Made by a program: the position numbers and the translations under genes. A stretch of DNA of 53,541 nucleotides, filler included, from Streblomastix strix (taxonomy: Eukaryota), in NCBI GenBank assembly GCA_008636045.1. It is 2 parts of 2 records of this genome, joined end to end, with 100 filler letters (N's around TTAATTAATTAA, not from the genome) between each part and the next. Parts side by side here need not be neighbours in the genome. Positions count along the whole stretch, not along the records: positions 26,836 to 53,541 come from SNRW01000158.1; 1 more part is not named here. One strand, written 5' to 3'. How positions within the stretch are numbered: position 1 is the stretch's first letter; the number at the start of each line of letters is the position of its first letter. Shown here one piece after another: positions 28,084-53,541 of this stretch. Under the pieces are notes generated by a model, which was not told where the DNA came from, did no database searches, and worked only from the letters and a program-made list of their open reading frames with translations.

Positions 28084-28119
28084 AAGGCGAAGTTGTTGTA
28101 TATTATTATACATCCTCTA
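28084..28119. repeat. ICR-like internal complementary region
   Basis: 35 of 36 bases are the reverse complement of the terminal extension 27334-27369, which lies outside the ITR. Confidence 0.8.
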
Positions 28120-28175
28120 GTTACCAATAGTCCCACTTTGGCAATTGAGGAGTATATATATTATATCCAACAACT

Positions 28176-29192
28176 TCACCTTTATTTAGTACTTGAAATT
28201 GGACTACATTCCACTTGACCACGAGTATCAGATAGTTTCGTTTCTATTTCATTATCTTTTAATCTCTCTGTAAATACATAGTACTCATTTGTTGATTTTG
28301 AATTTCTCGCATGTTTGGTATATGTGTATAATAACGTTTCGTCTAGACCCATTACTACTAGTTATGTTGCTGCTGAGTGTCTAAATGAATATACTTGTTT
28401 TCCTTTAATTCCCATCACATCTAGTAATTTTTTTAATCTAAGTGAGATTTGGCCTCTTTTGGCTGGTATAATTATGTCTTCGTTCCACAATAATGCTCCA
28501 TACTTATTATCTCTGATGGATCGACCATGTTTGTTATCAATTCTTTTCAACCAATCGAAAAATGTTGCTCTTGGACATATAGTTCGATCTCTAGTCTTTG
28601 GAAGTTTGTGTGAGTGAAGTCCAGACTTTGTTTTCGGCTGTAGTCGTAAGTCTACCTTATCAGTCTATTCGCAAATTACTGATTGTCTTAAAGACATTCC
28701 TTCTATTTCGGCTGGTCTCATTGAACAAATAGTCATAAGGTATGAAGTGTGTTTAGTCTACAGTTCAATATTTGTTAAATTTCGGTTCGATCCTTTTCCT
28801 CTCCAATAATCAAATAGTATTCCCATGTTCCATGTGTCTTCGTATTTCGGTTTAATAATTATGTGTGCTGAAATCGCATTCCTAGTAAATTGGAGCATGT
28901 GGTTATCCTTTAAATCTATGTCTAATGTGAGTGAGAGCATTGATGAGAATCCATTAAGAAACTGAAGTGCTGAGCTTGCTGAAGTGTTTACTGAAGTGAA
29001 TTAAGCTAGAACCTCTGTTATAATGATGTGTGGTTTCTTTGATAATAAATCAAATATTGTGTAATGATTGAACTAGGTCCATTTCTTGAGTTTTTGCAAT
29101 GCAGAATTGTATTTTATTTGGGAATTATATCTTTATCCATATAAAATCATGTCTATTGCTCCCTTGGATACGTCTTGTATCCTCAAAATCAT
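28176..29192 (-). CDS. DIRS tyrosine recombinase
   Basis: MRPAEI (Arg), QPKTK (Lys), CPRA, VYSFRHSAAT, YTKHARNS...EYY (Tyr); TGA at 28176. Confidence 0.85.
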
Positions 29193-31120
29193 TCTTGCGA
29201 ATATTCTCCCCTTCTTGACATTCGATCCATCTGGAAACTGCATATCTTCCTTGGATGAAGTTTCAAATTTTTCTTAATTAACGATGTTCCTGGTTCCAGA
29301 ATTTCGATGCTCCAGCCAAGCATAAGGGATTCAGCATACTCGTTTACCAGTTCTGTGTACCAAATCTGGCCTGGCCATAGAGGAGCTATTATCATTGCTT
29401 CGGTCTATTCCTCTCTGATCTTCTTCAGAACTGCTGGAAGGAGAGGGATACGAGGATGAATCCATGGAAGTTCCATCTTCCAAGTTTGATTTAGAGTGTC
29501 GATTGCTATTTCTCCGAGTCCTCTTATTGATGACATGAATCTTAGTAGGAGATTATTGAAGTGTTGTGAGAATAAATCTATTGTTGAGTTCAAGTTCATC
29601 TGAAGACATGTCTGTAGAAAAATCTTCTCTTTTAGTTTGTAGTCTCCTGCCCTTAAGAATCTGCTTAGTACGTCTGCTATTTCGTTTTTACCTCCTGGGA
29701 GGTGAGTAATCTGGATCTAAATTCCTAGCTTTTCTGTTGTATAGTGTACCTGTTTGATTTCTATTATTAACGATATTGATGCTCTCCATTTCCCAATGTC
29801 GAAAACTGCTGTACTATTGTCGCTTCTGATCGCTAGGGATTGAATTCGCAAAATCTTTAAGATTTTGGTGAAACTTCGTAGGCCTTAAGTTATAGTTTTG
29901 ATTTCCCTGTTGTTGCTTAATAACTTCACTTATCTTTTATTCTAAGTTCCATGAGCCATTGCTATCATTTCCAGTTGTCTCTCTAGTGTTAAACCCCAGC
30001 TACTAGGTGCTTCATCTGTTGTCATTGTCATTTGTGATGGTATCTGTATTAACTGAGCTGGAATGTTCGCCCTGAGTTTCGCAATCCACCAATTTATATC
30101 TGGAATTGCTGTCTTGTTCATTGTAATTGTTGTATTCCATCCTCTCAGTCTTGCAGCTTATGCTTTCTGATGGTCCATTGTGTTCAGGAAGAGTGAGGCT
30201 TCTTAGATTTATAGTTTAAGTAGTTTAGTTTTCCTATTAATTTCGCTGTTTATTTTACTGTTATTTCTGTTCCCGTCTTTATCCATCTTCTCATATTGAA
30301 TAGATCGTGTAGAAGAAGTAATCGCTTCTTCGGTTTCATTTTGACTGTTGCATTGGCTGGATTCCATTCCCATCTTAGAAATATTTCTATTTTACTCGGT
30401 TCTGTCTCGCTCTTTTCTGAGTTCATTGTGAATCCGAAGTATTTCAGTGTGTCTATTGCTCTCTAAGTCATGTTCTTCAGATACTCCTTGATCTGGTGAA
30501 GGAGAAGGATGTCGTCGACATAATTAATTATTCTAATCTCGGTTTTCATTCTTATTTGTTGCATTATTGGTTCCATAACTATTGCAAAGTATATTGGTGA
30601 GTGTTTGGTTCCGAATGGCATTGCTCTATATGTGTAGTAGTTGTTCTGGAATTCGAATGCTAGGTATGGTTGTGATTCTGTTTGGACTATTAGGTTGTGA
30701 AATGCGGAGGAGAGGTCCATTGAAGTGCCCCAATCCCCAAGTCTAATTGTTTGTTTCACCTTGTTCGAATCGTGCATCTTGAAGTGGAAGTCTGCTATCT
30801 ATTTATTCAAAGCTTTCGCAACGAGTATCTTTCTCCATTTCCCGTTTGCTTTCCTTATCATAAATGTCGGGTTTTATCATTTAATCTATTCCTTTTTGAT
30901 CGATACTGCAATGTTCTCTTTCAATTCTTCCTCTAACATTATCTTGTATTCTCCTGCTTCTTCTTCTGTTCCCCTAAATTTCATTATCTTTAACTAACTT
31001 TCTAGTTCGTTAATCCTCTGATTATCTTTAAATTGGAGGGTAAATCCTTACTGGATGAAAGCTTTCATATTAATAGTTTCCCACTGTTCCAAGTATCTCG
31101 CTGTTTATTCTCACATTTCT
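29189..31120 (-). pseudogene. DIRS pol: reverse transcriptase, RNase H and N6-adenine methyltransferase-like domain, disrupted
   Basis: RT: MDLSSAFH, YRAMPFGTKHSP, INYVDDILL. RNase H: TTDEAPSSWG, NNREI, RSDNSTAV, HLPGGKNEIADVLSR. MT: IDLFSQHFN, WIHPRIPLL, IIAPLWPGQIW. In-frame TGA at 30877-30879 and a frameshift near 30220. Confidence 0.88.
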
Positions 31121-31149
31121 GTCTGATATTTCTCTATTCTCCAGGTCGA

Positions 31150-34100
31150 TTTCACGGTTCTCAAGATTTCTGCCCTCCCTTCCTTCTTACTCTCCTTTTT
31201 ACTCAGTCCAACTAATCCGACTAGTCAGTCTCGGAGTCGGGCTCTATTTCTATCTAGTTTTCAGAGTTGAATCTTTGTTTCTGTTTCTTGGATCCTGCAC
31301 TGGTCTTGTTGCCTTTGGAGTGTTTTCCGGACTTGTCTTCAGTAACTGGGGCTACATCTGCCTTTTTTCTCTGGTTATACTAGGGTGTGAAGTGGTTAGA
31401 AGTGTTAGAGTTGGCTCTCGCTTCGGGACTCCCTAAGGACTTATTGGGTACTGACTTTTGTTAACCTGTTTTGCTTCTAGTATCATGGTCGTTGGTTGTT
31501 TATATCCTTTGTCTGGGTTCTACAACATTTCCTTTGACTTAACCTAATTCTGGAGGTGTGGTGATTAGAGGTTGTTAGCCTTTGCGTAATGAAATATTTT
31601 GATTTCTTAGTTCTTATTCGGAATGGGTTGTATGAGGTGATCCTATATCTCTTGGTTTATTATTTCCGTTATCTTGTTCATGTTGGGTTATGTTGTTGGA
31701 TCCTTAATTGTTTTGTTATCCTCCGGTTGTATTATCAGTCGTTTGCTCATTATTGCTTTCATTGCCAGTGTTATCGATTGCTTGATAGTTTTCATGTCCA
31801 TATTCGTTGGTTGCTGTTTGTAAATGCGTCTCGCAACCGTTTCCTCCGAGTCCATCCGATCCGTTTACATTGTGAGGTGGAGTGTTGGCAGATATTTTTG
31901 TGATATTGATCTTGGGATTCGCTTCTCCGTTGACAATGGCCTGTAACTGCATCCCGCTGCCATTCTTTCTGAGTCCATCGTTTCCGTTTGTGAAAAGCTT
32001 GGGTTTGATTACGTACTCAGATTAGTCATTGTCTTCATTGTCGTTTGTTCCTTCAGCTACGATTCTTTCTAATTCATTTGTTAATTGCTCTTGATCTTCG
32101 TTATCTGTTTGTGATTATACAATTTGTTATACTGTGAATGTAATTAAACCTGTTGTTGCTTCGGGTATTGATTGGTACATTTGGGGAGTATGTTAATGAA
32201 TCCAGCCACTCCATCACTGACGTTTAATAATCCTGGGATGTATGATCCCTTTCGTAAATTCGTCCACTCTTCAAGGTTGTCGGTTAGTCAAAGTCAAAAG
32301 GGGACTACGCCCTCGCGTATGTCCCCATTAAATTACTTCCATTGTTCTTCTGAGAGATTTAGGTCTTTAGCCCTGGGAATTGGTGTTGGGCGATAGTTCT
32401 TAGGTGGATAGAAGAAAAGCGGGCAATCCTTGTTTGAGAAATGTTTATGTTATCCTAGTAGCATAGTCTTGAGTTTTTTCTTCTCTTCTTCATTAATTGG
32501 TTTCTTTATTTCATGGAATCTTTCAATTACTTCCATTAGTCCTGCATATTGTTGTAATTTCGGTTATTTTGGTTCTGGTTCCTTTTCCTTATATCCTCGT
32601 GGATCTCCGGGAGAAATTTATCATAGTTTAGATAATGTTTCTTCTAATGAAGGTGATAGTGAGTATTGTTGAGGGTGTGGTGAAAAAGATTTATGAGATG
32701 TATTGTGCAATGGACTTATGTAATATAAGACTATGTTATAATTTGCATGAGTGATCTGGTCAGATTGTATAAGTGAAATGGAGTTTTTTAGCTCTGAACG
32801 CCTTTCTATTTAGTTTTCATTTACTTCTGGATTCTTTTCCATTTGTGATTGTTGTGGTTGGGATTGTTATTGGTTTTAGCCTATTGTTTCTTATCGAATT
32901 CGATCTATCTCTACTTCTCCGTTCGTCTGTGGCGTTCATCATCCTCCAACCAGTACTCATCACCAACGGTTCATGGAACTTCCGTGTTTCCTTTCCCTGT
33001 CCAATCTTCTTATATTTCCTAGCTGTTACTGCTGCCGCTACTGCTACTGCTACTGCTGCTGCTACTACTACTTTGTTTCTTCTTCACTTCTGCCTCAAGA
33101 AATGCCTCGTCTAATCTCGACCTTTTCATTTCTTTCCTATTATTTATTGCGTATTACGTCTCCTTTTCATATATTCTGATCGATTCATTTCTCCTGGACT
33201 TGTCATAAGAACTTTGAGACTTATATTCCTTTGACAGGTAGTGTGGTATATTGATTTACTCCAATGAAAAGCCTGCATCTGACCAAAACTCTCTCCAATC
33301 TCTAAATATGAAGGGTTTCTGTGTTTCCAGCTTGCTATGCCATTTCGAGTTCTTGTATTTGATCACACTACGGTCTTTTACCAAATTATATCCTCTGTTC
33401 TACTATGTTCTTTGTGCTGTCTCTATGTCAGTTCTGTGCGGTGGTAAATGTGGCATTGTTATTCCAGGTATTATTTCATCCAGAAATTCATCCTCATCAG
33501 ATTCATCAGCTCTCTTATGTGTTGGCGATATCGATCTTTAACTCTGTTTCTGTTAATTTCTCTCTGTTGTGTATAGTAGCAGTGGTATCCGAGAAGTTTG
33601 TAGCTGTGGATATGCCGGAATAGGTGGAATCAACATACTTTGTACATTCCGGACTGACGTTGTACTCAGTCGTGGTCTCTCGACTGTTTGCATTGCAGCT
33701 TGATCCATTTATTGACTCGGTTGAATTAAACCTTGTTAATCTCTTACAGTTTCATTGTTTGGTAATCGAGGTTCGTTAATTTATATTCATGTTTGGTTCA
33801 TCGTTGATAAAAACGGATTCAGTGGTAGGATAGCTGGGAACTGAACTGGTTAAATCGGGTATTGCCTTGGTTGTCCAAAGTATTGGAAGGGGTATTATGG
33901 TGGCTGTTATAACTATATCTATTGTTGAGGGTGCTGGTTGTTAAAGGGATTGAGTGGTGCGTATGGTTTCAGGCTCTACTGTTGTAATTGACTCAGTAGT
34001 GGTAAAAACGCAGTCAGTTGGGTTTCTGGTGTATGTTTTCTCGCTAGATCCCGAGCCCATTCTGGTGGCATTATCTCCGGCTTGCTCTTAATCATGTCTA

Positions 34101-34887
34101 TAACTTGTCGCGCGGTCAGCCTCTTCAGTTCTTAGTCAAATTCTCCTGTAAAGCCTGCAATTCCTGTTAATAATGTGTCTACCGATACCGGATGTATTCA
34201 TTCGTTTTCGAGTAGTGTTCACAGCGATCTCAGCATATAATTATTATACCCTGGACGTTTTACTGGTGATAGTTACGTTTTTAGTAAGTTCCCTTGTTCT
34301 GTCGTGTCCATCAGCGCCCATGACATGTTTACCTTGTAAGTCATGTCTTATATGTTTATAAACATGCACAAATTGAATTTCAGAGTTGCAATGCAGTCCC
34401 GTTTCATAATCTATGTTAGTATCCTTTGTAACTGTCTGTACTGTTGCAGCAATTTCTTTTCCAGATATGCGAGAACTTGATCAAAGACGAACATCGGTTG
34501 TGCTAGTGGATAATTATGTTTCGGTGGTTTTCTGCGCATCACCAAATCTGTGGCTACACTTGCGCGTTGTGCAGCTTCTACAACCTGCTCTTCTGACGGT
34601 TCTTCCGCGTAAAAATCAATCTGCGACGTTTCTTGTCCGGATAGCCCCGCCAAGAGTGTCCGTGCTGCTGTTATCGCGATTGGTGGTAACTCCTCTGGTG
34701 TTGCTATTGTTTAGTCAGGGTCCAATGGATCTATCTCCAAGTTCTGGCGGAACGCATTCACAAACGTCGGCTGAGGCTGCACAGTGGCCTGCAGTGGGTT
34801 TTGTGGTACAAAGTTAGCGTAATTCGGTGTCTAGTATGAGTTCCTGTTCGGCGGACATTTGCTTGCGAAACTGGTTTTGCGCGTCAT
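31150..34887 (-). pseudogene. DIRS 5' ORF region (gag-like and accessory, Q/P/S-rich), with several TGA stops and frameshifts
   Basis: ATG at 34887, 33 nt inside the ITR, is in frame with the 34411-34653 ORF. In-frame TGAs occur around 32290 and 32635. Confidence 0.55.
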
Positions 34888-34919
34888 CCTTTCTTTTGCA
34901 GTTTTTAATATGATCACGG

Positions 34920-34965
34920 CATTGTAAACATTGTTTGGGGAATGGCCAGAAGAATCACTTCAAAT
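34920..34965. repeat. DIRS inverted terminal repeat at the element 5' end
   Basis: Reverse complement of 27392-27437. Confidence 0.9.
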
Positions 34966-35938
34966 TATTTGATTCAATAGGTTCATTATCTAATTTTAAT
35001 TATATTTTCTTTAGGTTTTGACGTATCATCGATTATTTCACCAACTACGTTAGCAGGCATTAAATGCTTAGCAGAGCACAAACCTTCGGTTTCGCTTCGT
35101 TCTAGACATATCTTTGGCATTGTCTAAATGCGATTAGCGGCATAATCAACTAATTGCAATCTTATTTTATCATCATGTGTTAGCTCTCTATGTTTAATCA
35201 TAAACGTTTATTTTATAGTTTTTGATATTTTGATTTGGTTTCTTTCAATATCATTTATTATTTTCTTTATTTTAAATTATTTAAATGGACTTACACCATA
35301 TACTAAAGAATTTGATAGAAAATTGTTCAAAATTGAATATTTTGATAATTCATATGTTATCTAAATTAATATTGATATTAAAACATATAAAGAAGGAAAA
35401 AGATTTTTAAAAAATTAACATAAACATAATAGAAAAAGTTATTGTTATAAGCTAATGGAGGAGGCATGAACGAAAGAAAAATTGCATAAAATAACCTTAA
35501 AAAATAAACTGATGATGAAAATTTTGTATCTTATTAACCATAAGAGGATTAAAATGAAAGCTACGAAACATCAATAAGCGAGATTAAAGAAAAACCCATT
35601 AAAGAAATAAGTTAGAAAAATGTGTTGTTAAAAGATCAAAAACTCCATAAATTATTTAAACTAATCCTCAACTTGATTTAGAGGAACTAATCAGGTTGAG
35701 AACACGAAATTCAATTATTAAAAATTAACATTAAGATGCTGCTAAATAAATAGGGAAATATTACTAAAAAGTTAAACGGTATATGTAACCAAAATAGACA
35801 TTTGAAAAAGATTGCGTAATTGTATAAGTTTATGCTCCGAACGAATGCAAAGAGGAATCTACATAGTATGAAGAATATTATAAAGATATTAATTTTTGAA
35901 TTATATTATTTGATTATTTTTTGTTCTTATATTAAAAA

Positions 35939-36145: not shown

Positions 36146-36196
36146 ATTATTATTTTTGCTCCTTATTTAAATATCAATAAAAAGTAAGTATTATTT

Positions 36197-36573
36197 AAAT
36201 CATTTGACATTCCAGATTCATTCATTTAATATTCAATTTCTGCATTACTTTAATTGATTTTGCATTGTGAAGAGTCAATTAGAAATATTCCACATGGATT
36301 CATCATCAGAATTGATCCAAAGAAGTATAAACCAACAAATATAGAATCAATAAACAAATTAAGCAGATATATTTTTCCTCCTCTGCAAAATGAGTATATT
36401 ATTCCTGCAATACCAACAGCCAAATGCTAAATCGAATTAATCAGTCTTATTATAGTCAAGAGGCTAAATCCATATTTTGGATAATATGCAACAAAGAATA
36501 ATATGAAGTTCTCAATGCCGAAGATGAACTGGATGATGCAAAATACTAAGTAAGTTTTGTACAAAAAATCCAT
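36197..36573 (-). pseudogene. 3'-truncated duplicate (N-terminal part only) of the multi-pass membrane gene at 47554-48797
   Basis: Near-identical to 48420-48797 (IIQFIFGIENFILF.VAYYPKYGF...MMNPCGIFLIDSSQCKIN). Homology stops at ~36197. Confidence 0.75.
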
Positions 36574-37318
36574 ATTATAATAGTGATGCTCACTGAATAC
36601 TAAATAGAAAAATATATAATTTTATTAAATATAACTAAAAATCAAAAATGTCAATTTTATTAAGGAAAACTTATTGTTAATTTAGGAATGTGATGTGAAT
36701 TTTTATTTCGATAGAAGTAATTTTCTTTTCGGTTTTTAAGGTCAACAAAAATTAAATTGAATAAGTGCCTAGTATTTTTGTTATGAAAGGATATAAATTT
36801 ACTTAAAAATATTGTTATTGTAATAAAATAAGAGTTCCTTATTATGTAAAAATAAAAAAAAGTCGAATATCAACCAAATATAATTATTTTTTTTTCATTT
36901 AAATAAAATAAAATTATCAATTGAATTTATTAGGAATAGAAAAGTTATTATTATGTTTAATACATTCTTATTATTTTATCTCGTTTTGCAAGTTTAATTG
37001 TTTTTCACACATTATAAAAGTAGAATATTCTCATATAAAAACATTAATAACACCAGAAAATACCATATTTTAACCAAATTATTTTCTATATAACGAGATA
37101 TTTCGATATTATTTTAAAAACGCTCGGTTTCGCGATATATGTGCAATATTTATATTCATGGGCGTTTTTTTCGTATATTATACAAGATACAATATTTAAT
37201 TTTAATTAAAAATAATATAATTTATTTCTTTTTTTTTCATAGATATTTGAATGATAGATTCAATTGCATCGTTGGGAGTATTGATCATGTCATCGTATAC
37301 AAATTTGTTTGCGTTTAA

Positions 37319-37852
37319 TAAGAATGTATCGATATAATTATCAAATATAGTGTTCCAACTAAAATAATGAGATTTACAATCCCAGCAATGATTCATAATG
37401 TGTAATTCGAAAAGAAACTAAAAATCATTCCATTAGATATTTAAGCTGACGCTGAATTAAAATTAATAAAAATTCCAATATTATTTCATAGTTCATTATT
37501 AAATTCATTGTTAATATTTGATGATATTGGAAGTAATGCTGATATATAAAGATTCTCTTCAGGATTGTCAAAGACAATAACTCATTTAGTTTCTGATTCC
37601 CGTCACAGTAAAAATACTATTTTCTTTGTTGCTTAACGACCAAGTTACTTATTCAAAATTGCAAGAATATTATCACATGTTATGTGTTTAGGAGATAATC
37701 TATCAGAAAGTGATTTTAATCAAGCTTACGAAGAGAATTCTTTTTAGAATCTTGACTTTGATGAGTTTAAGTTACTGTATGGAACTCTTAATAAATATGA
37801 ATTCATAATACTTTATAAATGGTCTACCCAGTTTCTGATAATTAAATAATGA
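37319..37852 (+). pseudogene. A32/FtsK-HerA-type viral DNA-packaging ATPase, N-terminally truncated (no Walker A)
   Basis: NSLLIFDDIG (Walker B), LVSDSRHSK (Arg finger), TIFFVAQRPSYL (conserved Gln encoded by TAA), ..IARIL; TGA 37850-37852. Confidence 0.8.
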
Positions 37853-37890
37853 AAACTTTATTTAAAAAATAATTATTTTTCGATCCAAAA

Positions 37891-38456
37891 ATGGAAGAAA
37901 TTAATAATTGGTAAGTGTTAGTAGTTGATAATGATTATGAAATATTAACTGAATCACCGTATACAATACGAAAAATCTCAAATGGCTTTATTCCTATCAT
38001 ATCAATTGATAAGAGGTATGATTATTAATATGTTTCTCTAAATTGTGTAAAATTTTAATATCATCGTGTTATAGTAATTTAATTCATTCCTAATCCTTTA
38101 AATTTACCAGATATTGATCATAAAATCATTATCGAGCGGATAATCGATTAGAAAATTTACGATGGGTAACTCCAAAAGAGAATAATACAAATAAATCAAT
38201 CTATGAATATATAGATGAATTACTTGCAGGATCTTAAATATTAAATTAATATAATGAATCAATTCTTGAAGGTTACTGTTTTAACTAAGATTTTAAAGTA
38301 TATTTCCATAATGGGCTAAAATATAGAAAGTTATAGATGTTCATTAAAAAGAATAAATATTAATATGTTTGTGTTCAAGATATTAACGAAAAACCGGTAG
38401 TTATATATATTGATAAGCTGCGTAATGGAAATTATAAAACAAAATATTAAAGGTGA
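37891..38456 (+). pseudogene. HNH endonuclease (HNH_3 / phage homing type) with a 1-nt frameshift near 38125
   Basis: YHRVIVIQFIPNPLNLPDIDHK/[N]HYRADNRLENLRWVTPKEN. Confidence 0.82.
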
Positions 38457-38511
38457 TACTAAAGAATCAATGATAATATGTATGATTATATTTATTTTTC
38501 CTTATTCAAAT

Positions 38512-40599
38512 ATGACATTAGCTAAAACTTTGAGTTAATAATAGATCTAATTTATTCGTTCATTGATTTAATCAGATTTCCAATATTTGATATAATATTC
38601 AAGAAAATCATCAAGTACAAGTAGTCAATTATCAGGAAGTGAATATTCATTGACAGTTGATGAGTAAAACTCATTAATATATGCATCAATTGATAATGCT
38701 TAGAATTACGCAATGAAACTTGAAACTAATGGTGTAATGAATTTGAAAAATATAAATTTATTAAATAATGATTTCTTAGGTAAAATAACTACATTAGAAT
38801 AAGAAGTTAACCTATTACAATAAACATTGGGAACTGCAACTTAAGATATTGGTGGTTTAAAATAATAAATTAATGAAATTAATAATGAACTTAATAGATA
38901 AACACATTTTAGAGGATACTATTTATTGAACACAAATATATAAAATTTACCTAATTCTGCCAATAGTGATTTTGCATTCTCCGCTGAAAGTGGAACAGTA
39001 TGGATGTATGATTAGAGTTGGTACAACAGTGGAAATATAGTTCCTGATTAAGTAACTCCTGCAAGTGATGCTACTCCATTAGTTGATAGTGGAACTGGTG
39101 TTGCAGGAACTTCAAATGAGTATTCTAGAGGAGATCATAAGCATCCACTATAAATTTCTACTGTATTACCAAGTAAAGATACATCAGTTGGTACTATCGG
39201 TTCAGCTAGTTCTTATGTAAGATCTGATCATTAACATCCAATACAGACTGTAGATACTATTCCAGTTAGTGATTCAGCAGATGGATCTTATGGAACAGTT
39301 GAATCATATGCTAGAAATGATCATTCACATCCTATTAATGTCTAAACTAATGCACCAATTGTACCTATAGTTAATGGAGTTGGAAATAATGGAACTTCAG
39401 CATATTATTCAAGACATGATCATGTTCATCCATAGTAATTAACGTATGATGGTAACATTACTGCTACTAAATTTATTAAAACTGGTGGAACAAATTAATA
39501 AATATTAATAGCTGATAGGACAAATAAATAAATAACAGATTTTAATACAAGGGTCATACCAAGAGCTTTTTAAATTGATCCTGCTGATGGCATATATTGG
39601 TTGCGTTTTGCTATTTTAACTATACCTAATTATACATCTAATGGTTCATATGGTTGTACTATTGATATTAATACTACTTATGTCACTGATTTATTTTATC
39701 AGGTTAAATGGAATCTTAGATTTTAGAATAGATATAACAGAAGATTTGAAGCTACTCAATTAAGATAAGTATAAACTGATTTTATGATTTGTGCTGATAC
39801 ACCTGAAACATCTCTTATACTAAGATTCTATATGAAAGTATTTACAAATAGTACTTATATACTTTATAACATTAATTTATCATAATTCTCTGGTTCTAAT
39901 ACACGTGATAATTTTGAACTGTAAGATAATATAAATTAATATAATATAACTACTGATACATTACCCACTGGATCATTATTTACAAGTACACCAATATAAA
40001 ATCAATTAGTAAACTAAGGAGGTAAAATTAATGGAATAGTGTAAATTAACTCTATAATTAATGGTACATTTAATGAAGGTATTAGAATAAGCAGAAACCC
40101 AACGAATTTATGGAGCAATATACAGTTCGGTTGCGATCCAAATTCTAGTACTGGATATATTACTAATTAATGGTTAATTGGCTCAACATGTAATAATGGA
40201 GTTAATTCTCTTGGTTTTATTATTGTCAAATCAGGATAAGAGGGATCAAGTAGTGGCTTACAAATAAATTAATATGGTAATGAATCAAATTTCTATGGTA
40301 AAATGAACTCAGGTAATATATAAATTAACCCCACAGCTGATGGATATGATGATGGTTTGAGAATATCAAGAGCTGATCCAACAAGTACAGGAAATTCATC
40401 AATTTAGTTAGGATGCAGTAGAACATCTACCGTTGGAGCAATTAATGGCTAATGGTCTATATTTACACCACCAAGTAGTTCTACAAATAACCCTCAAAGT
40501 TTTGTAATAGCTGTTTCATCTTAAGCAGACGATAATAATAGAGGATTATAAATCAGTGCTGATGGAAACATATTAACTTTCAATGGTAGAGTACTATGA
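38512..40599 (+). CDS. Putative virion fibre or receptor-binding protein (695 aa)
   Basis: Intact 2088-nt ORF. Coiled-coil-like segment, four Y.R.DHxHP repeats (39121, 39214, 39307, 39406), and two C-terminal QIN...G(I/L)RISR...IQ(F/L)GC...QW.I...GLQI repeats. Confidence 0.72.
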
Positions 40600-40637
40600 A
40601 AATTCTTATCAATGTTTAATTTATTTTTCCTAGAAAC

Positions 40638-41174
40638 ATGTCAAAACCACTTAAATAATTGTTCACTGAACTTGCAAAAACAAACTATGAAGATGAAGAT
40701 TTAATAAGAACAACGATAGAAGCACTATAAAATCTGCTGATGAAAAGTAAATATGATTCATAACATATATTACTTAAGGAATTTATAAGAATTAATAAGT
40801 AATTCACAATATAATAGAGTAAATTATAGTCAATGAAATAATTTGTAGATGATGAAGACTATAAAAATAAAATATATGGTGAGAATAATAAATATTATGC
40901 AAATGACTATAATCAAATCAAGAAGAAGATGGATTTGAATCAATAACCATAATAAATAAAGAAATATATTATATCTGAAGCAACTGATAAAGAAAAATAA
41001 ATATATAATTAATTTGTTACAGATATCGATAATCAACTATTTTGTGGATACTATCAATTAACTCAACTTAATCTCACGAAAAACGAAGATTTACGTTGTT
41101 TATATTATTCTCACGATATTATAAAAACAACGAGTGAAGATCATGAAGCTAATGCAAGACTGTCTAAATAGTGA
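40638..41174 (+). CDS. Viral hypothetical protein (178 aa)
   Basis: Intact intronless ATG-TGA frame, MSKPLKQLFTELAK..., 38 nt after the fibre stop. Confidence 0.6.
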
Positions 41175-41457
41175 AGATAACCAATGATTTCTTATGTTTT
41201 ATCCGAAATCATACCAAATCTTTCATCAAATTATTATTTTTTTTAATCATAGAACTACTATTGATAATCATCTAATTCCTTAGCATCAATCAATGTCTCA
41301 AATATTTTAAACACTTCATAATCAGAGGCATTATGTTCTTTTCCTAATGTTTACGCAAAATAATATAAATCTTCCATTGATGAAGTCAATTACTAAGTTA
41401 ATTATGTAGTAATTATTGATTTATTATAAGAAAAATAATCATACAGCAGAATATTAA

Positions 41458-41664
41458 TCACCGTTTATTTAAGTATTAATCTACTTTCCCCGCGATGTTT
41501 CCTGCAGTTCCCATAATTGCACCGACTCCTGGTTGTAATGTTGAAACGGGGCCACTCAAAACATCCATTACTTTATGAATCGTAGGGGCCAGCCATGAAG
41601 CAGCTTTCTTAACACCGGTTAATATTTTTGAACTAAAATTTTTCAAGCTTGAGAAGAAACCCAT
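41458..41664 (-). CDS. Small amphipathic protein (68 aa), candidate myristoylated membrane-penetration or core protein
   Basis: MGFFSSLKNFSSKILTGVKKAASWLAP...GKVDQYLNKR-TGA. MGxxxS motif; basic amphipathic helix; Gly/Ala-rich tail. Confidence 0.65.
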
Positions 41665-41725
41665 ATTTACTTAATTAATAAAATTCTATTGATAGTTTTT
41701 ATATTAGTTAGTAAATACAAGTACA

Positions 41726-43674
41726 ATGAGTTTCTCTGCAAGTAATTATCTTTAAAGCTCGCATAAGCATAAAATTCTGATTATGTTTCTTCATATTCTG
41801 CTTTGAATGAAATTTTAAGAACTGCATCAATTCATCCATAAAGTTTTAATATAAGTAGAGTTTAGTTCTTTGATTAACCAGTAACTTAATTAACAAGTGA
41901 TGGATAAAGATATGCTCGTGCACCATTAGGTGCTAGAGGAGGTGATATATGTTCAATGGTATAAACTTGTTAGGTTAATTGGTAAATTACGATTCCAGCA
42001 GGTAGATTGGCATTATAAATTAATAAAACTCATGACGGAAATCTTGATGATACGGATGATGCAAATGCAAGAGTAAATTTCAAAGGTGATGAAGATATGT
42101 AATTCAATTATCAAACATCAATGGCATCTGGTGCTGATGGCGATACATAATAATAATTTATTGAAACAGAACATATTAAATTTTGGCTTGGATATTCAAC
42201 AGCATGTGGACCATTTTAATAATTTGCCATTTGTAAAGGTAATACAAAACTATGGGATACATCAATCTATGCAAGAGAATAAGCAGTGATATCAGCAAAT
42301 TCTTTATCAGACTTATGTACAAATAATTCAGTGAGCGTATCACCATTGGAATCAATAGCTGCTGGCAAAAGACATTGCGGAATGTTTATTGATATCCCTG
42401 TTAAAGATTTCTGTACAACAGCAGGTATCTTTAATTATAAAATACCATATCCAATAACATTTTCTGGAGTACTTGATTTAAATTAATTGAATCCAATTTT
42501 CAATTCATTTCCTGTTCTAACACGCAATTATACATCCTTATATCTATTGTTATGGACATAAGATTTCCTATAAGATCTGAAGATTATATGGCTGAACAAG
42601 ACAAATATGGTAACGAATGAACATCTTGCATATTAAATGATTCCACCAGAAAAACCTGATATAATATTCCTAAGAAATCGTAATATCGAATCTTATAATT
42701 CATATGCTGTTAGAATTGTTAATATGGAAGGAAAGCCATATACTGAACAATTTCCTACGAATACGATTTCGCAGATAAAAGATGCAAAATTTGATAAATT
42801 AGACATAAGCAACATAAGTTTCAATATGGAGAATGAAGAAGCAATAATAGATCTAATTCGAGCACAAAAAATAATTAACTTCCCTACTTAAATCATTCGT
42901 ACATTATCAACAAATTTTACTTTCGGTGGCTTTGATGAAGGTGGAGGAAGTTTATAGAGTATAATGTCATTTGCTAACATCAAAGCAATATATATGACAT
43001 TTGCAATGAACTAATATCCTACTTGGTTCTTCCCTGTGTTATTATAGAGGTTTGATTTAATAATTGATTAGCGGCATCTAGTACCAGAAGCTTACGCATC
43101 ACTTAATCCAATGGTTTGTGGCCAAATGATTGATTGCTTTGTTGATTAAGATGTTGTAGCGGCACCATCAGATCTATATCATTCATTAACTTTTGAAAAC
43201 TAATCAACAAATGAATCAGATAAAGATTATTATGGGCGAATGGGAGCTGGTTACTTATAAAGAGAAAATATATTCTATTAAACAACGTTATACAGAGGTA
43301 ATAAAGCTACAAAAGTGTATTATCCTAATAAATTTATGCTTGCATGGAAGATGGCTACAGATGATTCTTTCATGAGAGGCTACAATTCATCTAAAATGGG
43401 TGCAAGAACTAATATTCAAGTTACTTTACAAGGAAGTTTAACACCAGGTATCAATGAAAGTTCTTTAATTAATCCAGGAGAAAATCAGAATAATCACTTA
43501 ACATTCTGTGGAACACGATGTCATCATAATCCTAGAACTGCATAGATAACTCCATTGATGCATTATCTTTGTGATGCTATTGTTAGAGTTACTTTTGATG
43601 ATGCGCCTGATCCATAAGTTCTAACTTTAGAAGTTATTGGTGAATTAGGTGGAACAATGGTTAGAGCAGGATGA
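41726..43674 (+). CDS. Candidate major capsid protein (~650 aa, possibly double jelly-roll), with a 1-nt frameshift near 41760
   Basis: One frame is open from 41761 to TGA 43672-43674; the three ORF-track pieces at 42286, 42637 and 43315 share it. Beta-rich composition, ends ...LMHYLCDAIVRVTFDD...; located in the virion module. Confidence 0.6.
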
Positions 43675-43842
43675 AAAATAAAAATGAGCTAAATTTATTT
43701 TTGTTTAATATGAAAATTTAGTTAAATACTCTTTAGAGCGCGAATGTAATGAGTACTTAAGAAATAACGTTTGCTGATTTAATAATTTAAAATGATCCAA
43801 TTTTACTCTATTTACTTGTATTCTAACACATTCATTTTTAGT

Positions 43843-44022
43843 AAATCGCTCGTTGAAACACGTTTTTGATACTTAATTTTTCGTTTACCATGCTAAATCT
43901 CTCGTTGAAACACGTTTTCAGACTCTAAATTAGCTATCAAAAATGCAAATCGCTCGTTGAAACACGTTTTTGATGCTTAAGATTTCGTCTACAATGCTAA
44001 ATCACTCGTTGAAACACGTTTT
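43843..44022 (+). repeat. Subterminal tandem array: 4 copies of a 24-bp core at exact 52-bp period
   Basis: AAATC(G/T/A)CTCGTTGAAACACGTTTT starts at 43843, 43895, 43947 and 43999. Confidence 0.9.
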
Positions 44023-44084
44023 CAGACATCAAAAAACGAGCTCTACAGAATGCATTATTTTTGTTTTTTGAGCTCTGCAAATCA

Positions 44085-44205
44085 CAAACATGCTTAATTT
44101 TTCGTCTTCCAATTTCAAAACATGCTTAATTTTTCGTCTTCCAACGAACAATTTGCTTAATTTTTGCTCTTCCAACTAACAAATATGTTTAATTTTTCGT
44201 CTTCG
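44085..44205 (+). repeat. Second subterminal tandem array: 4 units with 31-32-bp period
   Basis: TG(C/T)TTAATTTTTCGTCTTC-like unit at 44091, 44123, 44154 and 44186. Confidence 0.85.
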
Positions 44206-44987
44206 AAAATTTTGATAGCGCTTTTTCAAACTTATTTTTCATAAAATATGGCACTTTTTGAGCTTTTTTATCTTGATTTATGAAAAATACGTTAAAATCG
44301 ATATTTACAAACGTAAAAACTGGTAAAAAATGAAAATACCGATTTGCGCCATTCCTATACTACTCTTTATGCATCATGTGATACAATGTTTCCCTAGATA
44401 CCGAATGAAGATATATATAAATATGAAAGTAATTAATATTTAAAAAAAAGAAAAAGTAAAAAAATAGTTTAAATTATTATCAGATAATTGAGATATTCAC
44501 AATTTTCGATATTTATTTTTTAATCTGTTTTTGTGTGATTAGTAATAGGTTATTGAATCACAAAATTTACATAATTTTTTTTAAAAAATATTATAAATTG
44601 AATGTACAAACTTTAAGCATAATAGATACTTTGTGTTATGAGAAAATAAAAGTTTTTCTGATCTCAGACTATGAGTTAAGTCATAATTCAACTTATAGAT
44701 AAATTGATAAATAATAGCAATATATTTATAAAATATTAAAAAATTATAAAAATTTATACATTAATAATCAATTTTTTAATCATAAAATGTTTTAACCGAA
44801 ATATATCGTTTACTCTAGATATTTTTATTAATTTCAATATATATTTTAATATATATTAATGGTTTTTATAATAATTTAATTAAATTTTTAAATTTAAAAT
44901 TAAAAATGAATAAAAAAATTGACTGTCATTGGGCTTGAACCCGGTTTCCAATCAGGAATTAATTTGACTATAGACAGAGCTATTATT

Positions 44988-46785
44988 TAAAAAGAAAGAA
45001 AAAGATTCAAATAATGAAAATAATTCAAATGAAGATCTTTATTTTGCTTTAATTGGAGAAAGATTTGAAGGACAAAAGAAAAATAAAATTAATTAATAAG
45101 AATCAAATATTTAAAATGAAAATGAATAAAAAGAAGATGAAAATAAAACAGAAGAATTACTTGGAAGGGGAGAAATCATGAGTGTTATTCACGTATCAGT
45201 TGAAACAATCAGTAATTCAAATAATATTCAATCATAAATACAAAATATTACATCATCATCTTCATAATAATCATAATCAAATAATAATATTCAATAATCA
45301 TTAACATCCAAACTTCCTATATTATTAAATGAAGATGAATAACAATTTCAAAATCAAAGAATGGTTCATATTAAGAAGATCTGCACACATCCTGAAGTGC
45401 GTGGAGTTGGATATGGATTAGAAGCTGTAAAATAATTGAGACAGTTCTTCAGAGGTGAATTACTGAATGTTGACTAAAATATTGATTAATTTGAAATATA
45501 AAATTAAAATTAAATAGAAAATTCAATTAATAAGAAAAGATTGATTACATATTAAGCTTCAAAAGCACCATTCTTATCATAAGTATCTCGAATTATTCCT
45601 CCAAATGCTGATTTCATTTTCACATCTGTTGTATTGGAATATGATGATGCTGAATCGATCTGCAATTTTTGGTTGAAATGTCAAATGACTCCTGTTTTAT
45701 TATATGGATAATAATCTTCTAATTAATTAAATGATAATCAAATAAATTCCTAAATAAATATCAAATAATAAGAATAAGAATTTATTGATGAATAAGAAGC
45801 AGAAAAGCGAATTAAATAGAAAATGGGAATGAAAGAAGAAAATTCGATAATAAAATCAACGGGAAAGAAAAGAAGAAGAATTGAATAAGAAGATGATGAA
45901 GATAATAATATTAAATAATAGAAAATAATAATAAATAAATAATAAAATGAGAATAAGAATATTAAAACATATTAGGGTGCATCATAATATGAAAGATGGA
46001 TATGTTGTTTTGCATAACCAATTCGAACTGAGGAAGAAGATGATAATGATGAAGAATAAGAATAAATATAATAAATTCAATCTGAATAATAATAAAATAA
46101 TAATAAATAATCAAAATAAACTAAAATCACTCTTTCACAAATCAATTCCTGGATTGAAAGATGTTTTTCTCGTTTCTGTTATCGTCTTCTTTCACTGATT
46201 GATCCGAATGGAAGAAGATTCTTAGGTAATCCTGCTCCTCCAATATCCTAACCAGATATTAATATATAATAATAAGATTAAGATTAATATAATAATAATT
46301 CAAATAGTTATTAATATTATTCACCAACTGAAATGTTTCCATATGTTGCACTACTTCTTCTTACTGGTCGTGTTGCGTGTGGTCTAACGCATGCTGAAGC
46401 AGAACTATTATTAGAAGCAGGTCTTCGAAGTGGAAACTGCCGAGTTAATAAAGAGAAATAATTAAGTAATACGAATAGTGCATTAAATTATCTGAAATCA
46501 ATTGGAGTAGTTCGTTTGTAGAAAATAACCGTTAATTCAATTAGTTAAGATGATCAAGAAAAAGAAGGATATTAATCAGATTAAAGTGAAAATGGAGTAT
46601 TATGTGGAGTAGGAGAAAGACTTGGACTGAAGAATATTCAGGTTATTGAGAAATTGAAAGCAGCATGTGGACGAGTATGGGATTGTGTTAATACAATGCA
46701 GAAAGAATAAGAATAAGAAAATGATGATAATTAATCAATTAATGATAATGATTTAGAAGATAAATAAGAAGATAATAGTGACTGA
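44988..46785 (+). pseudogene. NAT10/Kre33-like paralog, C-terminal (GNAT) half only
   Basis: VHIKKICTHPEVRGVGYGLEAV (GNAT motif A), ICNFWLKCQMTPVLLY, WIERCFSRFCYRLLSL; TGA 46783-46785. No start or N-terminal half; duplicate of 51803-53118. Confidence 0.7.
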
Positions 46786-47553: not shown

Positions 47554-48797
47554 TCATTGAGCATTTTAAGATGAAGAAGAAGACGATGAAGATGAAGTAG
47601 AAGAAGGATTGAATAATGGATTTTATTACATAACATATGGTTATTCTCTTTATTATCCAGGAGTTGTTTCAAAAACTGATAATGGAACTACAATTCTCTC
47701 TTCTTAATTTCGATTATCAATTATTTCACGTTTATTATTATCTTTTGGTTTTCTCTTACAACAATTACAGCATTTTGAGCAATTCATATATTCATCATCT
47801 TCATCATTATATTTATATTCATCTTTACTATCTATATTGGTAAAAATAAATATTAAAGAAGCATGAGCTATGAATGGTTCAAATATTATCATGAAAATCC
47901 CTGCACCAAGTGACAATGATTTTGTATCAGGATTTTTCTCTTTAACTCCAAAAACAATTGTTAATATAAGTCCTGCTATGATTATTAAAATATAGACATA
48001 TATCAGAAATGTAAACAACTTTTCAAATAAGGAATCATCTTCTTTTGATATGGCATAAATAATTATTGCCATAATAATTAGTAATATTAGCGAACACCCA
48101 AGACATGAAGAAGCAGAATATATCAGAATTCTATGCCAATAGAAGCATTCAACAATAATGTACAAAATAGGCCCAGCACTACTAAGTACTATTATCGAAA
48201 TAATTTATATCTAAAATATAAAAATCAAATGATGGTAATAATAAAAATTGATGAATGTTTATATACTAAAATGATTAATAATAATAATCATACAAATTTT
48301 ACATATTCGCCAGCTTTTTCATCCATTGCAAAAAGAATTATAATCTTAAAGTAATAAACAATTGATTGAAGAAAGAAATCAATTCCACCAAACAGAAATG
48401 CCCCATAATAATCTTTATCTAAATCATTTGACATTCCAGATTCATTCATTTAATATTCAATTTCTTTATTACTTTAATTGATTTTGCATTGTGAAGAGTC
48501 AATTAGAAATATTCCACATGGATTCATCATCAGAATTGATCCAAAGAAGTATAAACCAACAAATATAGAATCAATAAACAAAATAAGCAGATATATTTTT
48601 CCTCCGTTGCAAAATGAGTAAATTATTCCTGCAATACCAATTCCTAAAAGCCAGATTGAATTAATCAGTCTAATTATGGTCAAGATGTTAAACCCATATT
48701 TTGGATAATATGCAACAAGGAATAATATGAAGTTCTCAATACCGAAGATGAACTGGATGATGCTAAATATTAAAAAGATCAAGTGGAAACGATTCAT
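47554..48797 (-). CDS. Multi-pass membrane protein (~7-8 TM, Cys-rich cytoplasmic motif), 2 exons
   Basis: Joins ORF-track pieces 48474-48797 and 47704-48165 through TAA=Gln and an intron at ~48211-48293. Contains CSKCCNCCKRK; TGA at 47554. Confidence 0.7.
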
Positions 48798-49429
48798 ATT
48801 TAATTAGTGATGCACTGAATACTAAATAGAAAAATAAAAAATTGTATTCAATATAACTAATAAATATGAATTGTCAATTTTATTTAAAGAAAAGTTATTG
48901 TTAATTAGGAATGTGATGTGAATTTTAATAATTAGTGAAATTATTTTTAATTTAGTTTATATGGTCATCATTTATGAATAAATGTATACGATTAAAATAT
49001 TTGTCAAGTGTATGTATAAATTTAATTAAAAATATTATTATTGTAAAAAATTAAGAATTTCTTATTGTGTAAAAACTAAAAAGTCAAATATCAACCAAAT
49101 GTAATTATTTTTGTCATATTTACATAAAATAAAATTATCAATTGAATTTATTAGGGATAGAAAAGTTATTATTGTGTTTAATACATTCTTATTATTTTAT
49201 CTCGTTTTGCAAGTTTAATTGTTTTTCACACATCATAAAAGTAGAATATACTCATATAAAAACATTAATAACACCAGAAAATACCATATTTTAAATCATT
49301 ATTATTCAATATAACGAAATATTTCATTATTTTTAAAGTGAAATATTTCGCAGCAGAAAGAACATATAATTATTTTTAAATATATTTTTCTTCGAACACT
49401 AATATTTATTTGTTAAATTTTAATTAGAA

Positions 49430-52400
49430 ATGACTGATCTCAATCCTCTTTTCTAGCGATGCTGGAGTTAAGGATACAATTGCATCGTTGGGAGTATTGA
49501 TCATGTCATCGTATACAAATTTGTTTGCATTTAATATTTTATGTTCTTAAATATTATTATCTTTATTTTAAACAATCCAATTTAGATTTATAAAGCTTCT
49601 TCGTTCCTAAAAGAGAAAAAGATAATACCACGAGTTTCTATTTTGTGCTCAAACTTATCACTGTATAATAAATTTTAGTAATAATACTCAATTTTTATTA
49701 ATTTTTGCTTTATTTATAATCATCAGACTATCAGATCATGAAGAACGAATTAAGAAGAAGTTCCATGCTCGATTAATTAACTTTGAATATAATAATATTG
49801 ATTATTTAAATTCCAAACCTGACAATATATGTGTAATTTCGGTATTGATTCACTTTTTAATTCGTTTAATTTATGTATTCTAATAATTTCATGGAATATT
49901 CAATGTAAATGCAGATCTGTTTATCCGAACAATTGTTTAATCCGATCAATTTTCAATCATCGTAATTAACATTGATTATAAATCTTGCAATCTTTCTCCA
50001 GCTGTTTCAAGAATGCTTCATCTTCTTTTCTCTTCTCCAAATTCATTAATTTACTAATCAAACTCAAAATCTGAATAAAATGAAACAAATCTAACATTTA
50101 CAAATTAATCCGAATTACCAATTCAAAAATCACAAAATATAAATTCATCACAATAACGCATATTAGTAGAGCTTCATAAAATTATTGATTCATTTTCAGG
50201 AGTTGATATTATTGAACCTCTTTTGAAATTACTATGTGAAGGAGTTATCAGAACAAACCAAAGATATATTTCAGATTAAGATGATAAAATAAACATAAAA
50301 CAATATAATTCATCAATAACAGCAGATTTTGCATTAGATTCAATAAAAGCATTTCTTATGATATTTGATGCACTATCCCAAAGATCCTGGCTTCCATCAG
50401 CAGTATGTAACTCATCACATACAACAATACATTTACAGAAATAACAAACATCAACCAGTCAAACGATTGTAGTATCAGCACCTACTAATTGTTCAGCATA
50501 AAAATATCGATCATTCATATTTGGTATATCAGTATCATCTGGAGTTGGATTAGGACTTTCTTCTATTTGCATTGTTGGATCATCAGCTGAAGATGCAGAA
50601 CCGATATTCAGTGGATGTGTGAAAGGATTTGATGCACTTGGTTATATTGAAGGAAAAGATTACACGATTATTATGCAGAAATAATAATATGAATAAAATG
50701 AATAATAAATAAGTAATGATAATATTAATGATAATTAAAATACTGATGTATCAAATACAAAAGTTAAAAGAAAAAGAGAAACTGAATATGAATAATAAAT
50801 AAATAAATAAAATAAATCAATTATAATGAATCCTCGAGTTCTCCGAATCGATATTTTCCATTCACACAAACAAACAGTTCAATTCTTACTTCCAACTGAA
50901 CTATAATTGGCTCATGTTTGCGATCTTGTTATTTTCTGCAGTAACTACTTGCTTATTTGAAGCATGAACCGATAATAAGCGATTGGAACATCATAATCAG
51001 CTAAGATGTCAATAATTCCATTAAATATTGGAGGAAATGAAGGATGCTGTGTTCAAATTGCAGGATAAGCTGTATGTGAATTGAGCTAGAGTGAAATTGA
51101 AATTGGATAAATTAAACTAAGAATTTAATATAGAAAGAATAATACAATGAATAAAATGAATTATAGAAATAACGGAAATTTTCATCATTTTCATAATTCG
51201 GATGCAAATGAATTATTTAATTTGAATGGAAAAGGAAGTGGAGTTATAACAACTGTATTATAAAAACCGCCATTAATGAATACATCTGATCCGATTTGTT
51301 CAATTTTGTCTGAATTATTCTTCTTCTCATGGTCACTATTAATTGATTATTAATTGAATGATGAAAAATTAAATAATAAAACAAATTAATTATAATAATA
51401 ACAATATTCATTTTCGCATTAAACATTACAATTGATGATGCAAACGCATAGATGTTTAGCATGTCCACCTCCAGAATTATGCAGTCTTCATTTATTGAAT
51501 CCATCCGCTATGCATATTATGAAATTACCTCTATTTCATACATTTAAATAATAATAATAATAATCAAACAATTCACTTCAGAAACATCATTGATTGAAAA
51601 GAACTAAAACATTAATAATAAGAAAAATAAATAAATAGATGAAAATAATGATGATAATGAATAGAAATTGAATAATATCAGATCATAATCAGAATAAGAA
51701 GAATTATTTCTTGCACGATTCTTTGCAATATATCGTGGATATGAGAGAAATATATCAGGAAATGAAATATAAGAAATTTTGGGGAAGAAATAAATTAATT
51801 AATAAAAAAGAAAGAAATAGATTCAAATATTGAAAATAATTCAAATAAAGATCTTTATTTTGCTTTAATTGGAGAAATATTTGAAACACAAAAGAAGAAT
51901 AAAATTAATCAATAAGAATAAAATATTTCAAATGAAAATGAAAATAAAAATAAAAATAATTAAGAAGAAGATTCTTAAAATTAAAAAGAAGAATTACTTG
52001 GAAGCAGAGAAATCATGAGTGTTATTCACGTATCAGTTGAAACAATCAGTATTTCAAATAATGCATAATCATAAATACAAAATATTACATCATCATCTTC
52101 ATAATAATCATAATCAAATAATAATATTCAATAATCATTAACATCCAAACTTCCTATATTATTAAATGAAGATGAATAACAATTTCAAAATCAAAGAATG
52201 GTTCATATTAAGAAGATCTGCACACATCCTGAAGTGCGCGGAGTTGGATATGAATTAGAAGCTGTGAAATAATTGAGGCAGTTTTTCAAAAGAGAATTAC
52301 TTAAAGTTGACTCAAATATTGATTAAATAGAAATAGAAAATTTAAATTAAATATTAAATTCAATTAATAAGAAATAATCGATCTCTTATTAACATTCAAA

Positions 52401-53118
52401 AGCACCATTCTTATCATAAGTATATCGAATTATTCCTCCAAATGCTGATTTCATTTTCACATCTGTTGTATTTGAATATGATGATGCTGAATCGATCTGC
52501 AATTTTTGGCTGAAATGCAAAATGACTCCTGTTTTATTATATGGATTATAATCTTCTAGTTAAATAAATGATAATCAAATAAATGAATAAATGAATATCA
52601 AGTAATAAGAGTAGGAATTTATTGATGAATAAGAAGCAGAAAAGCGAATTAAATAGAAAATGGGAATGAAAGAAGAAAATTCAATAATAAAATCGACAGG
52701 AAAGAAAAGAAGAAGAGTTGAAAATGAATAAAATAATGAAGATAATTAAAAATAGAAAACAATTGAAAATAAATAAGAAAATAAGAATAAAAACATTAAA
52801 ACATATTAGAGTAAATCATAATATGAAAGATGGATATGTTGTTTTGCATAACCAATTCGAACTGAAGAAGAATATGATGATGATAATAAAGAAGAGTAAG
52901 AATAATAAAATATTAATAAATAATCAAAATAAACCAAAATCACTCTATCACAAATCAATTCCTGGATTGAAAGATGCTTTTCTCGTTTCTGTTATCGTCT
53001 TCTTTCACTGATTGATCCGAATGGAAGAAGATTCTTAGGTACTCCTTCTCCTCCAATATCTAAACCAGACATTAAAATATAATAATAAGATTAAGATTAA
53101 TATAATAATAATAATAAT
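49430..53118 (+). pseudogene. NAT10/Kre33 (RNA cytidine acetyltransferase)-like divergent paralog, disrupted and 3'-truncated
   Basis: KGFDALGYIEGKDYTII, RVLRIDIFHSHKQTVQFLLP, DPICSILSELF, CPPPELCSLHLLN, HPEVRGVGY. In-frame TGA at 50958-50960, frameshifts near 51563 and 51780; diverges from copy 1 at ~53118. Confidence 0.75.
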
Positions 53119-53541
53119 TTAGGATTATTATTTGTATATGATCTTTTACCATATGTATTCTCCCATAGTTCGAGGTCTTTGAACACAATCAACAATATTA
53201 AAACTCTTTATTATACATTTCATATTTTGTTTGTGATCAATAATTTATGAAATAAATTATCATTCAATTGTAATTATACGTTAAAATAACAAAAAGAAAA
53301 TTAATAGTTCTATTTTTCATTAAGTAGCATTTTTAATTAGTAGACACGAGTAATACCTTACACCAGTATTTTCCCTGCCATCTGTGTGAAATATCAAAAC
53401 ATCTTCCTCCTCCGGTATTCCATATTCTTCAATGCATTCTCTCACATCCCCCAAAATCTGCTATGCCAATTAATCTTACCGCTTATTACGCAAATTCTTA
53501 ATAACTGATGAAATACATTGAATAGTAACTGATAGTATGTT

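Follow-up and report, generated by a model that had tools for sequence, protein, structure and literature searches.

The genome of Streblomastix strix, an oxymonad protist of the termite gut, contains a compact gene cluster at positions 37319–44364 of the stretch analysed here (53,541 nucleotides of assembly GCA_008636045.1, filler included; from here on the window), which raises the question of whether the cluster is viral and, if so, how much of the virus is left, in which genetic code it is written and whether its lineage is already described. Translation with NCBI table 6 revealed seven tightly packed genes with no signs of introns, and the ATPase, HNH nuclease, fibre-like, amphipathic and beta-rich open reading frames (ORFs), together with the tandem repeats and the sequence ACTACT listed in a first-pass annotation of the window, were all found where it had placed them. 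With table 11 the longest stop-free piece per frame measured 30–87 aa in the eight viral frames, and the cluster is therefore invisible to standard ORF calling, as had been proposed. Our analysis confirms, with corrections, that 37319–44364 represents the right-hand part of an endogenous Polinton-like virus, truncated and, as assembled, damaged; it is very probably a frameshifted 7-kb piece of such a virus, its genes using TAA and TAG for glutamine in the manner of the host and including a predicted double jelly-roll capsid gene. The annotation had taken the cluster for the virion module and right end of a virus, and in this the capsid fold, the ATPase family, the gene linkage and the boundary agree with it, but what is present is a damaged fragment and not an intact module.

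The large ORF at 41726–43674 (plus strand, ~649 codons, frameshift near 41753) is predicted to be the double jelly-roll major capsid protein gene, with the fold taken from a copy of the protein, P0009 (EZS28_011740), which shares 90% identity with the window protein over 639 aa without gaps. A search with the capsid gave 188 matches, all 119 named ones listed being from S. strix, and a profile search revealed distant full-length relatives at 21–31% identity on contigs of up to 20–22 kb. The P0009 model, built with distant relatives added to the alignment, reached a predicted local distance difference test score (pLDDT) of 87 and a predicted template modelling score (pTM) of 0.89. When this model was run through Foldseek, 19 out of 19 rows listed were double jelly-roll virus capsids (E 1.6e-11 to 7.6e-10), among them those of PBCV-1, EhV-201, an iridovirus, Sputnik, mavirus and faustovirus, so that the jelly-roll fold suspected in the ~650-aa beta-rich ORF was recovered in P0009 with E ~1e-11. 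Alignment of the same model with VIA-align gave Z 16.0 and a root mean square deviation of 3.9 Å over 345 residues for the PBCV-1 capsid, the best non-capsid row having Z 6.2, and an Atlas feature comparison of the capsid scored 0.96–0.97 to Preaxostyla, Parabasalia, nucleocytoplasmic large DNA virus (NCLDV) and Sputnik-type clusters. No family match for the capsid was obtained in Pfam, PHROGs or NCBIfam, and profile searches of PDB sequences with the capsid and ATPase alignments and with the fibre gave nothing meaningful. A tree was built from 28 rows, of which 18 were S. strix copies picked for full length and 10 were outside relatives; in this tree, rooted at the midpoint only and with long branches meeting, the S. 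strix rows lie on one side of a branch with a support of 100/100 and a stem of 1.9 changes/site.

At the left edge of the cluster, 37319–37852 (plus strand) holds the C-terminal 177 codons of a packaging ATPase without its Walker A half. The fragment contains the motifs LLIFDD (Walker B), DSRH (SRH) and FFVAQR (Q motif), and full-length relatives carry GAVGSGKT (Walker A) in the half that is missing from the window. All 20 matches of the ATPase search (20/20) are from S. strix, and the best Pfam family is Pox_A32, matched by 2 of 11 relatives (E 5e-5 and 1.6e-4). Judged by its motifs, the protein is assigned to the A32/FtsK-like packaging family, Walker A being supplied by the relatives and the other motifs by the window.

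The linkage of these genes, which the first-pass annotation had expected to extend beyond this locus, was found in other copies. For the matches listed for capsid and fibre, to which these counts apply, 13 of 119 capsid matches have a fibre match no more than 6 locus tags away on a contig of equal size, corresponding to 13/77 on contigs of at least 4.5 kb. Among 260 proteins, fused gene models join ATPase and fibre (18), fibre and amphipathic protein (33) and capsid and amphipathic protein (3), in varying orders, and in the metagenome contigs L001 and L002 the capsid, the amphipathic ORF and the ATPase lie side by side. L001 (1–13454), a standard-code relative, has terminal tandem repeats at 64–363 in addition to these three genes, and also harbours three paralogous ORFs of 200–220 aa, a 701-aa ORF of no assigned function and a fibre-like ORF. 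Scans of viral contig and genome contig collections gave no relative, no RNA data set was listed as containing the sequence, which has no bearing on its expression, and Pfam, PHROGs and NCBIfam gave no single jelly-roll minor capsid protein. In one fused S. strix gene model, P0113 (EZS28_011667), a capsid is followed by two HNH-like parts and then by residues ~830–1010. The latter presumably resemble the N-terminus of Polinton PolB, with no family match obtained, and provide a lead towards a linked polymerase.

On the right, downstream of the capsid gene, subterminal tandem repeats extend over 43842–44204 and consist of 52-bp units (3.5 copies, 43842–44022) and 32-bp units (3.6 copies, 44090–44204); they are likely part of a right terminal inverted repeat whose partner would have been on the absent arm, no partner repeat being present in the window. 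The sequence ACTACT follows at 44359–44364 (plus strand). Polintons begin with 5'-AGTAGT. The annotation had let the element end in the tandem repeats and ACTACT, and both are present, but ACTACT occurs 34 times in the window on the two strands and is weak when taken alone. It gains weight because a contig from an independent run, X4 (249 nt, depth 2.7, a single contig), matches from 44364 rightward only, to 44554, and then diverges from the window, as an empty site would; in addition, the G+C content (GC) drops from 0.28 to 0.18 across ACTACT. Taken as sequence evidence this makes ACTACT the likely right terminus of the element. Integration in a eukaryotic genome is further borne out by host duplicates on both sides and by GC steps (0.28 within the element, 0.23 leftward and 0.18–0.21 rightward), together with the right boundary matched by the one contig.

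When analysing the left junction (37319–37320), host DNA was found to run directly into the ATPase gene of the virus, midway along the gene. A host duplication, 36191–37320 against 48415–49536 (83%), ends where ATPase homology begins (37316–37319), host duplicate and ATPase frame overlapping by 2–3 nt at the junction. Duplication sets in again at 44982 with a second block (44982–46321 against 51798–53132, 88%), and in the first copy the virus fragment separates this block from the preceding one; the duplication includes two GNAT acetyltransferase genes. In the other copy the blocks are separated by 2261 bp that are missing from the virus-bearing copy and of which no part matches 44365–44981. 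The arrangement is as left by a deletion through the virus and adjoining host DNA, in which the ATPase likely lost its Walker A half. Alternatively, the element may be real, with the left junction and the two frameshifts being assembly artefacts of a short-read single-cell genome holding hundreds of similar copies, and the true locus holding a complete virus or no virus at all. A previous survey (Bellas et al. 2023, PMC10120064) shows that spurious stops and frameshifts arise where copies are collapsed, the frameshifts in the HNH and capsid genes, one in each (near 38120 and near 41753), are both situated at A-runs, and none of the contigs listed bridges the left junction. Two contigs of run X2 extend left of 37319 with different letters. 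However, the junction falls exactly within the 2–3 nt overlap and the next 2.2 kb of the duplicate are gone, as after a deletion, and many annotated copies are fragmentary too, only 28 of the 119 capsid matches listed opening with the family's start. An artefact is accordingly regarded as rather unlikely, and a real deletion through the virus and adjoining host DNA is preferred.

The fibre-like protein is encoded at 38512–40599 (plus strand, 695 aa), and the identification as a fibre, made by analogy, is suggested by its architecture: a likely coiled coil, four RxDHxH repeats, an exchangeable middle domain and a repeated C-terminal module. The search with this protein gave 319 matches, all 120 listed being from S. 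strix, and in these 120 relatives, which were selected on residues 130–325, that region with the four RxDHxH repeats is conserved with a mean identity of 0.71. Residues 345–495, on the other hand, show 81–83% identity in three copies with shafts only 65–73% identical, and none of the 26 closest shafts (at least 80%) shares the middle domain at 50%. Contigs also jump from 39480–39489 to 40530–41000. This points to an exchange of the middle domain between copies, bearing in mind that false introns and fusions occur in the annotated gene models compared; a fibre protein whose middle domain can be swapped is new here. No family was found for the fibre in Pfam, PHROGs or NCBIfam, phage records gave no match for the fibre or for the L001 capsid, and Atlas rows with phage-fibre families scored only 0.78–0.80 for the fibre-like protein.

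A basic amphipathic protein of 68 aa is encoded on the minus strand at 41458–41664. It shares 31% identity over 67 aa with the ORF adjacent to the capsid gene in L001, and its hydrophobic moment was reached by 22 of 2000 shuffles. We take the protein to be like adenovirus protein VI, a resemblance that makes membrane penetration its likely role.

Several results weigh against the identification of the cluster as a Polinton-like virus. The capsid fold was obtained on the 90%-identical copy and not on the window protein, whose own model, made from a shallow alignment of 58 S. strix sequences, had a pLDDT of 53, gave no Foldseek match in PDB or BFVD and was discarded as poor. The Pox_A32 match is weak and is absent for the full-length relatives P0444, P0446 and P0151 as well as for the window protein, and the unbridged left junction counts here too. 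Genes for a protein-primed DNA polymerase B (pPolB), an rve integrase, a protease or a penton were found neither in the 32 other frames scanned in the window, where the first-pass annotation had seen no pPolB, integrase or protease either, nor in the six ORFs scanned in the 13.4-kb L001, and the element is incomplete. In addition, the roles proposed for the fibre and the protein VI-like ORF are based on architecture and general likeness.

To address the genetic code of the element, the glutamine codons were counted. TAA and TAG make up 0.74–1.0 of these in seven viral frames and 1/2 in the eighth, compared with 0.61–0.83 in five host frames; in the capsid frame they are 33 of 41 and in the fibre 43 of 53, and TGA ends all eight viral frames that have an end. 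Alignment of the capsid with 11 distant non-Streblomastix relatives, a test in which no code is assumed, placed TAA/TAG positions opposite Q in 22% of 296 aligned cells and CAA/CAG positions in 20% of 76 cells, the figure for other codons being 3% of 5043. The module is thus written in the host's code, as had been claimed, with ~80% of glutamine codons being TAA or TAG as in host genes. The same holds for the claim that even the conserved ATPase glutamine is encoded by TAA: this codon, for the final Q of FFVAQR, is TAA in the window and CAA in L001, where the five genes checked all stop at TAA. Use of the host's code table by viral elements of S. strix has already been published in the survey (PMC10120064).

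The codon data suggest a period of replication under the host code that was long enough for codon usage in the lineage to reach that of the host, and a host with the standard code would no longer be able to read its genes. In the capsid frame 33 codons act as stops in other hosts, which would confine the lineage to hosts in which TAA and TAG encode glutamine. The same codons could also have arisen by neutral drift in dead copies after integration of a standard-code virus, with no active virus ever using the host code. The window copy is indeed broken, AT-rich drift favours CAA to TAA changes and the relative L001 stops at TAA, yet the share of TAA and TAG is already at host level with the capsid differing by only 10% from the copy closest to it, and full-length capsid frames have been kept across a clade of 53–90% identity with a stem of 1.9 changes/site, suggesting selection under this code. 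Drift alone is therefore considered highly improbable, and replication under the host code is preferred.

Whether the capsid family is new was approached by comparison with the survey mentioned above, in which 820 S. strix capsids, forming one cluster (cluster 40, Metamonada), were found by PSI-BLAST seeded with Trichomonas capsids (PMC10120064); membership of this cluster implies at least 25% identity over 30% of the length to cluster members. The elements described there are alike in host, in TAA/TAG=Gln code, in double jelly-roll capsid and in being present as hundreds of copies on short contigs, but their capsids form a single cluster with ~32% identity to Trichomonas Maverick capsids, and the part covered gives no gene-level anatomy of S. 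strix elements. The window family (~650 aa) appears to lie outside the representatives of that survey, from which it is set apart by means other than direct alignment. It might nevertheless belong to cluster 40, in which case nothing would be new at the family level; Atlas gives 0.97 to a Parabasalia cluster, some copies of the family are labelled 'Major capsid protein' in UniRef, and the supplement of PMC10120064 was covered in part. On the other side, the published set was seeded with Trichomonas capsids and forms one cluster, Tables S2 and S3 contain only one representative from S. strix, and of the window family, five locus tags and three motifs do not occur in the covered text; no Trichomonas protein occurs among the 120 of 188 capsid matches listed, and none of 22 members of the window family had a Trichomonas-capsid Pfam family listed. 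Membership of cluster 40 seems unlikely on these grounds, and the sequence comparisons indicate that with this family S. strix probably has a second, so far undescribed, group of capsids, so that the suggestion of a poorly described lineage is probably right as far as the capsid family is concerned. Literature searches on Streblomastix or oxymonad viruses listed only PMC10120064 and a Yaravirus preprint.

With somewhat less assurance, the evidence leans towards a wider proposal, that S. strix carries a second, undescribed Polinton-like lineage missed by the 2023 survey, whose capsid family is also found on metagenome contigs of 10–22 kb (at least one of them in standard code) and of which one branch crossed to the recoded host, rewrote ~80% of its glutamine codons, was locked in, radiated and diversified its fibre by domain swapping. 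If true, this second lineage would be a tractable case of a virus crossing a genetic-code barrier. The locus adds a capsid lineage that is likely unrecorded and whose members differ in genetic code, making it possible to ask how fast a virus adopts the code of its host and whether the code limits host range, and capsid surveys seeded from known families would undercount viruses in recoded genomes.

When comparing with other known systems, Polinton-like viruses and Maverick-Polintons, as described in PMC7805220, share the PBCV-1-like capsid, the packaging ATPase, compact intron-free genes and a repeat-rich end, and the 20–22 kb contigs carrying the capsid relatives P0315, P0329 and P0330 fit their size. 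In contrast, pPolB, integrase, minor capsid protein and a partner repeat were not found in the incomplete element, and paired terminal inverted repeats with a target-site duplication of 5–7 bp would involve the arm now lost. Adintoviruses and MELD viruses (PMC8502044) are alike in that their virion module encodes small proteins active on membranes (cupiennin-like, protein VI-like) and includes genes resembling those of phage fibres, but, compared by description, they differ from the window in that no protease or PolB was seen here and in that the host is a protist that lives anaerobically and uses a reassigned code. Virophages (Sputnik, mavirus) share the capsid fold (Z 12.7–13.0) but show a capsid identity of only 8–10%, the window capsid has no virophage capsid Pfam match, and no protease was seen in the incomplete element.

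The cluster also contains an HNH homing-endonuclease gene (37849–38456, plus strand), the two halves of which, split by the frameshift near 38120, match HNH_3 in Pfam (E 1e-4) and an HNH family in PHROGs (E 3e-7). Contigs of runs X1, X2 and X3, representing two samples and two studies, join 37822/3 to 38456 with 14–15 other letters between, and the orphaned codons ILKNQ* at 38456–38473 (plus strand), downstream of the insertion, are the ending of the HNH-free relative P0129. Because of these HNH-free contigs and the P0129 ending, the HNH gene is placed inside the 3' end of the ATPase gene, to which it gives a substitute ending with the old one left behind; it likely homes into this site, and an optional HNH gene in the ATPase 3' end is new here. 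A 926-aa ORF at 37819–40599 was rejected as a single gene, being the N-terminal half of HNH run into the fibre gene by the frameshift.

The capsid-family fold, the code, the positions of the junctions, the HNH-free allele and the fibre mosaic come from the analyses above, and the steps of assembly, packaging, attachment, entry and integration given here are drawn from established Polinton-like virus biology. In an intact relative the viral genes would be translated by host ribosomes, the capsid protein would build an icosahedral shell, the A32-like ATPase would pump a linear genome bearing inverted ends into this shell, the fibre would bind the next cell and the small amphipathic protein would breach its membrane, followed by integration through an enzyme encoded on the arm now lost. 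A long stay in the recoded host likely let the glutamine codons drift to the host's 80% TAA/TAG, copies likely recombine and swap fibre middle domains, and the HNH gene likely homes into the ATPase 3' end, supplying the substitute stop. The window copy likely died when a deletion joined the middle of the ATPase gene to host DNA.

Two further ORFs are situated between the fibre and the amphipathic gene, one of 178 aa (40638–41174, plus strand) and one of 78 aa (41141–41377, minus strand), and neither these nor the amphipathic ORF matched a family in Pfam, PHROGs or NCBIfam. A stretch of ~90 bp at the overlap of the two ORFs (41071–41163) is skipped in many other copies.

Outside the cluster, a GC-rich element (0.35–0.43) is located at 27390–34970 with 79-bp inverted ends (87%), a tyrosine recombinase (28179–29330; Pfam Phage_integrase, E 5.5e-5) and a long degraded ORF, and 44% of its glutamine codons are TAA or TAG. 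The degraded ORF presumably derives from a reverse transcriptase/RNase H, and we take the element to be a likely DIRS-type retrotransposon. The recombinase was considered as the integrase of the virus and rejected, since it lies inside this separate element with its own inverted ends. A host gene for the TATA-binding protein was identified on the minus strand at 24881–25375 (Pfam TBP, E 3e-27), and at 26736–26835 two 44-base assembly gaps surround a 12-base palindrome, flanked by a 43-bp inverted repeat (26459–26723).

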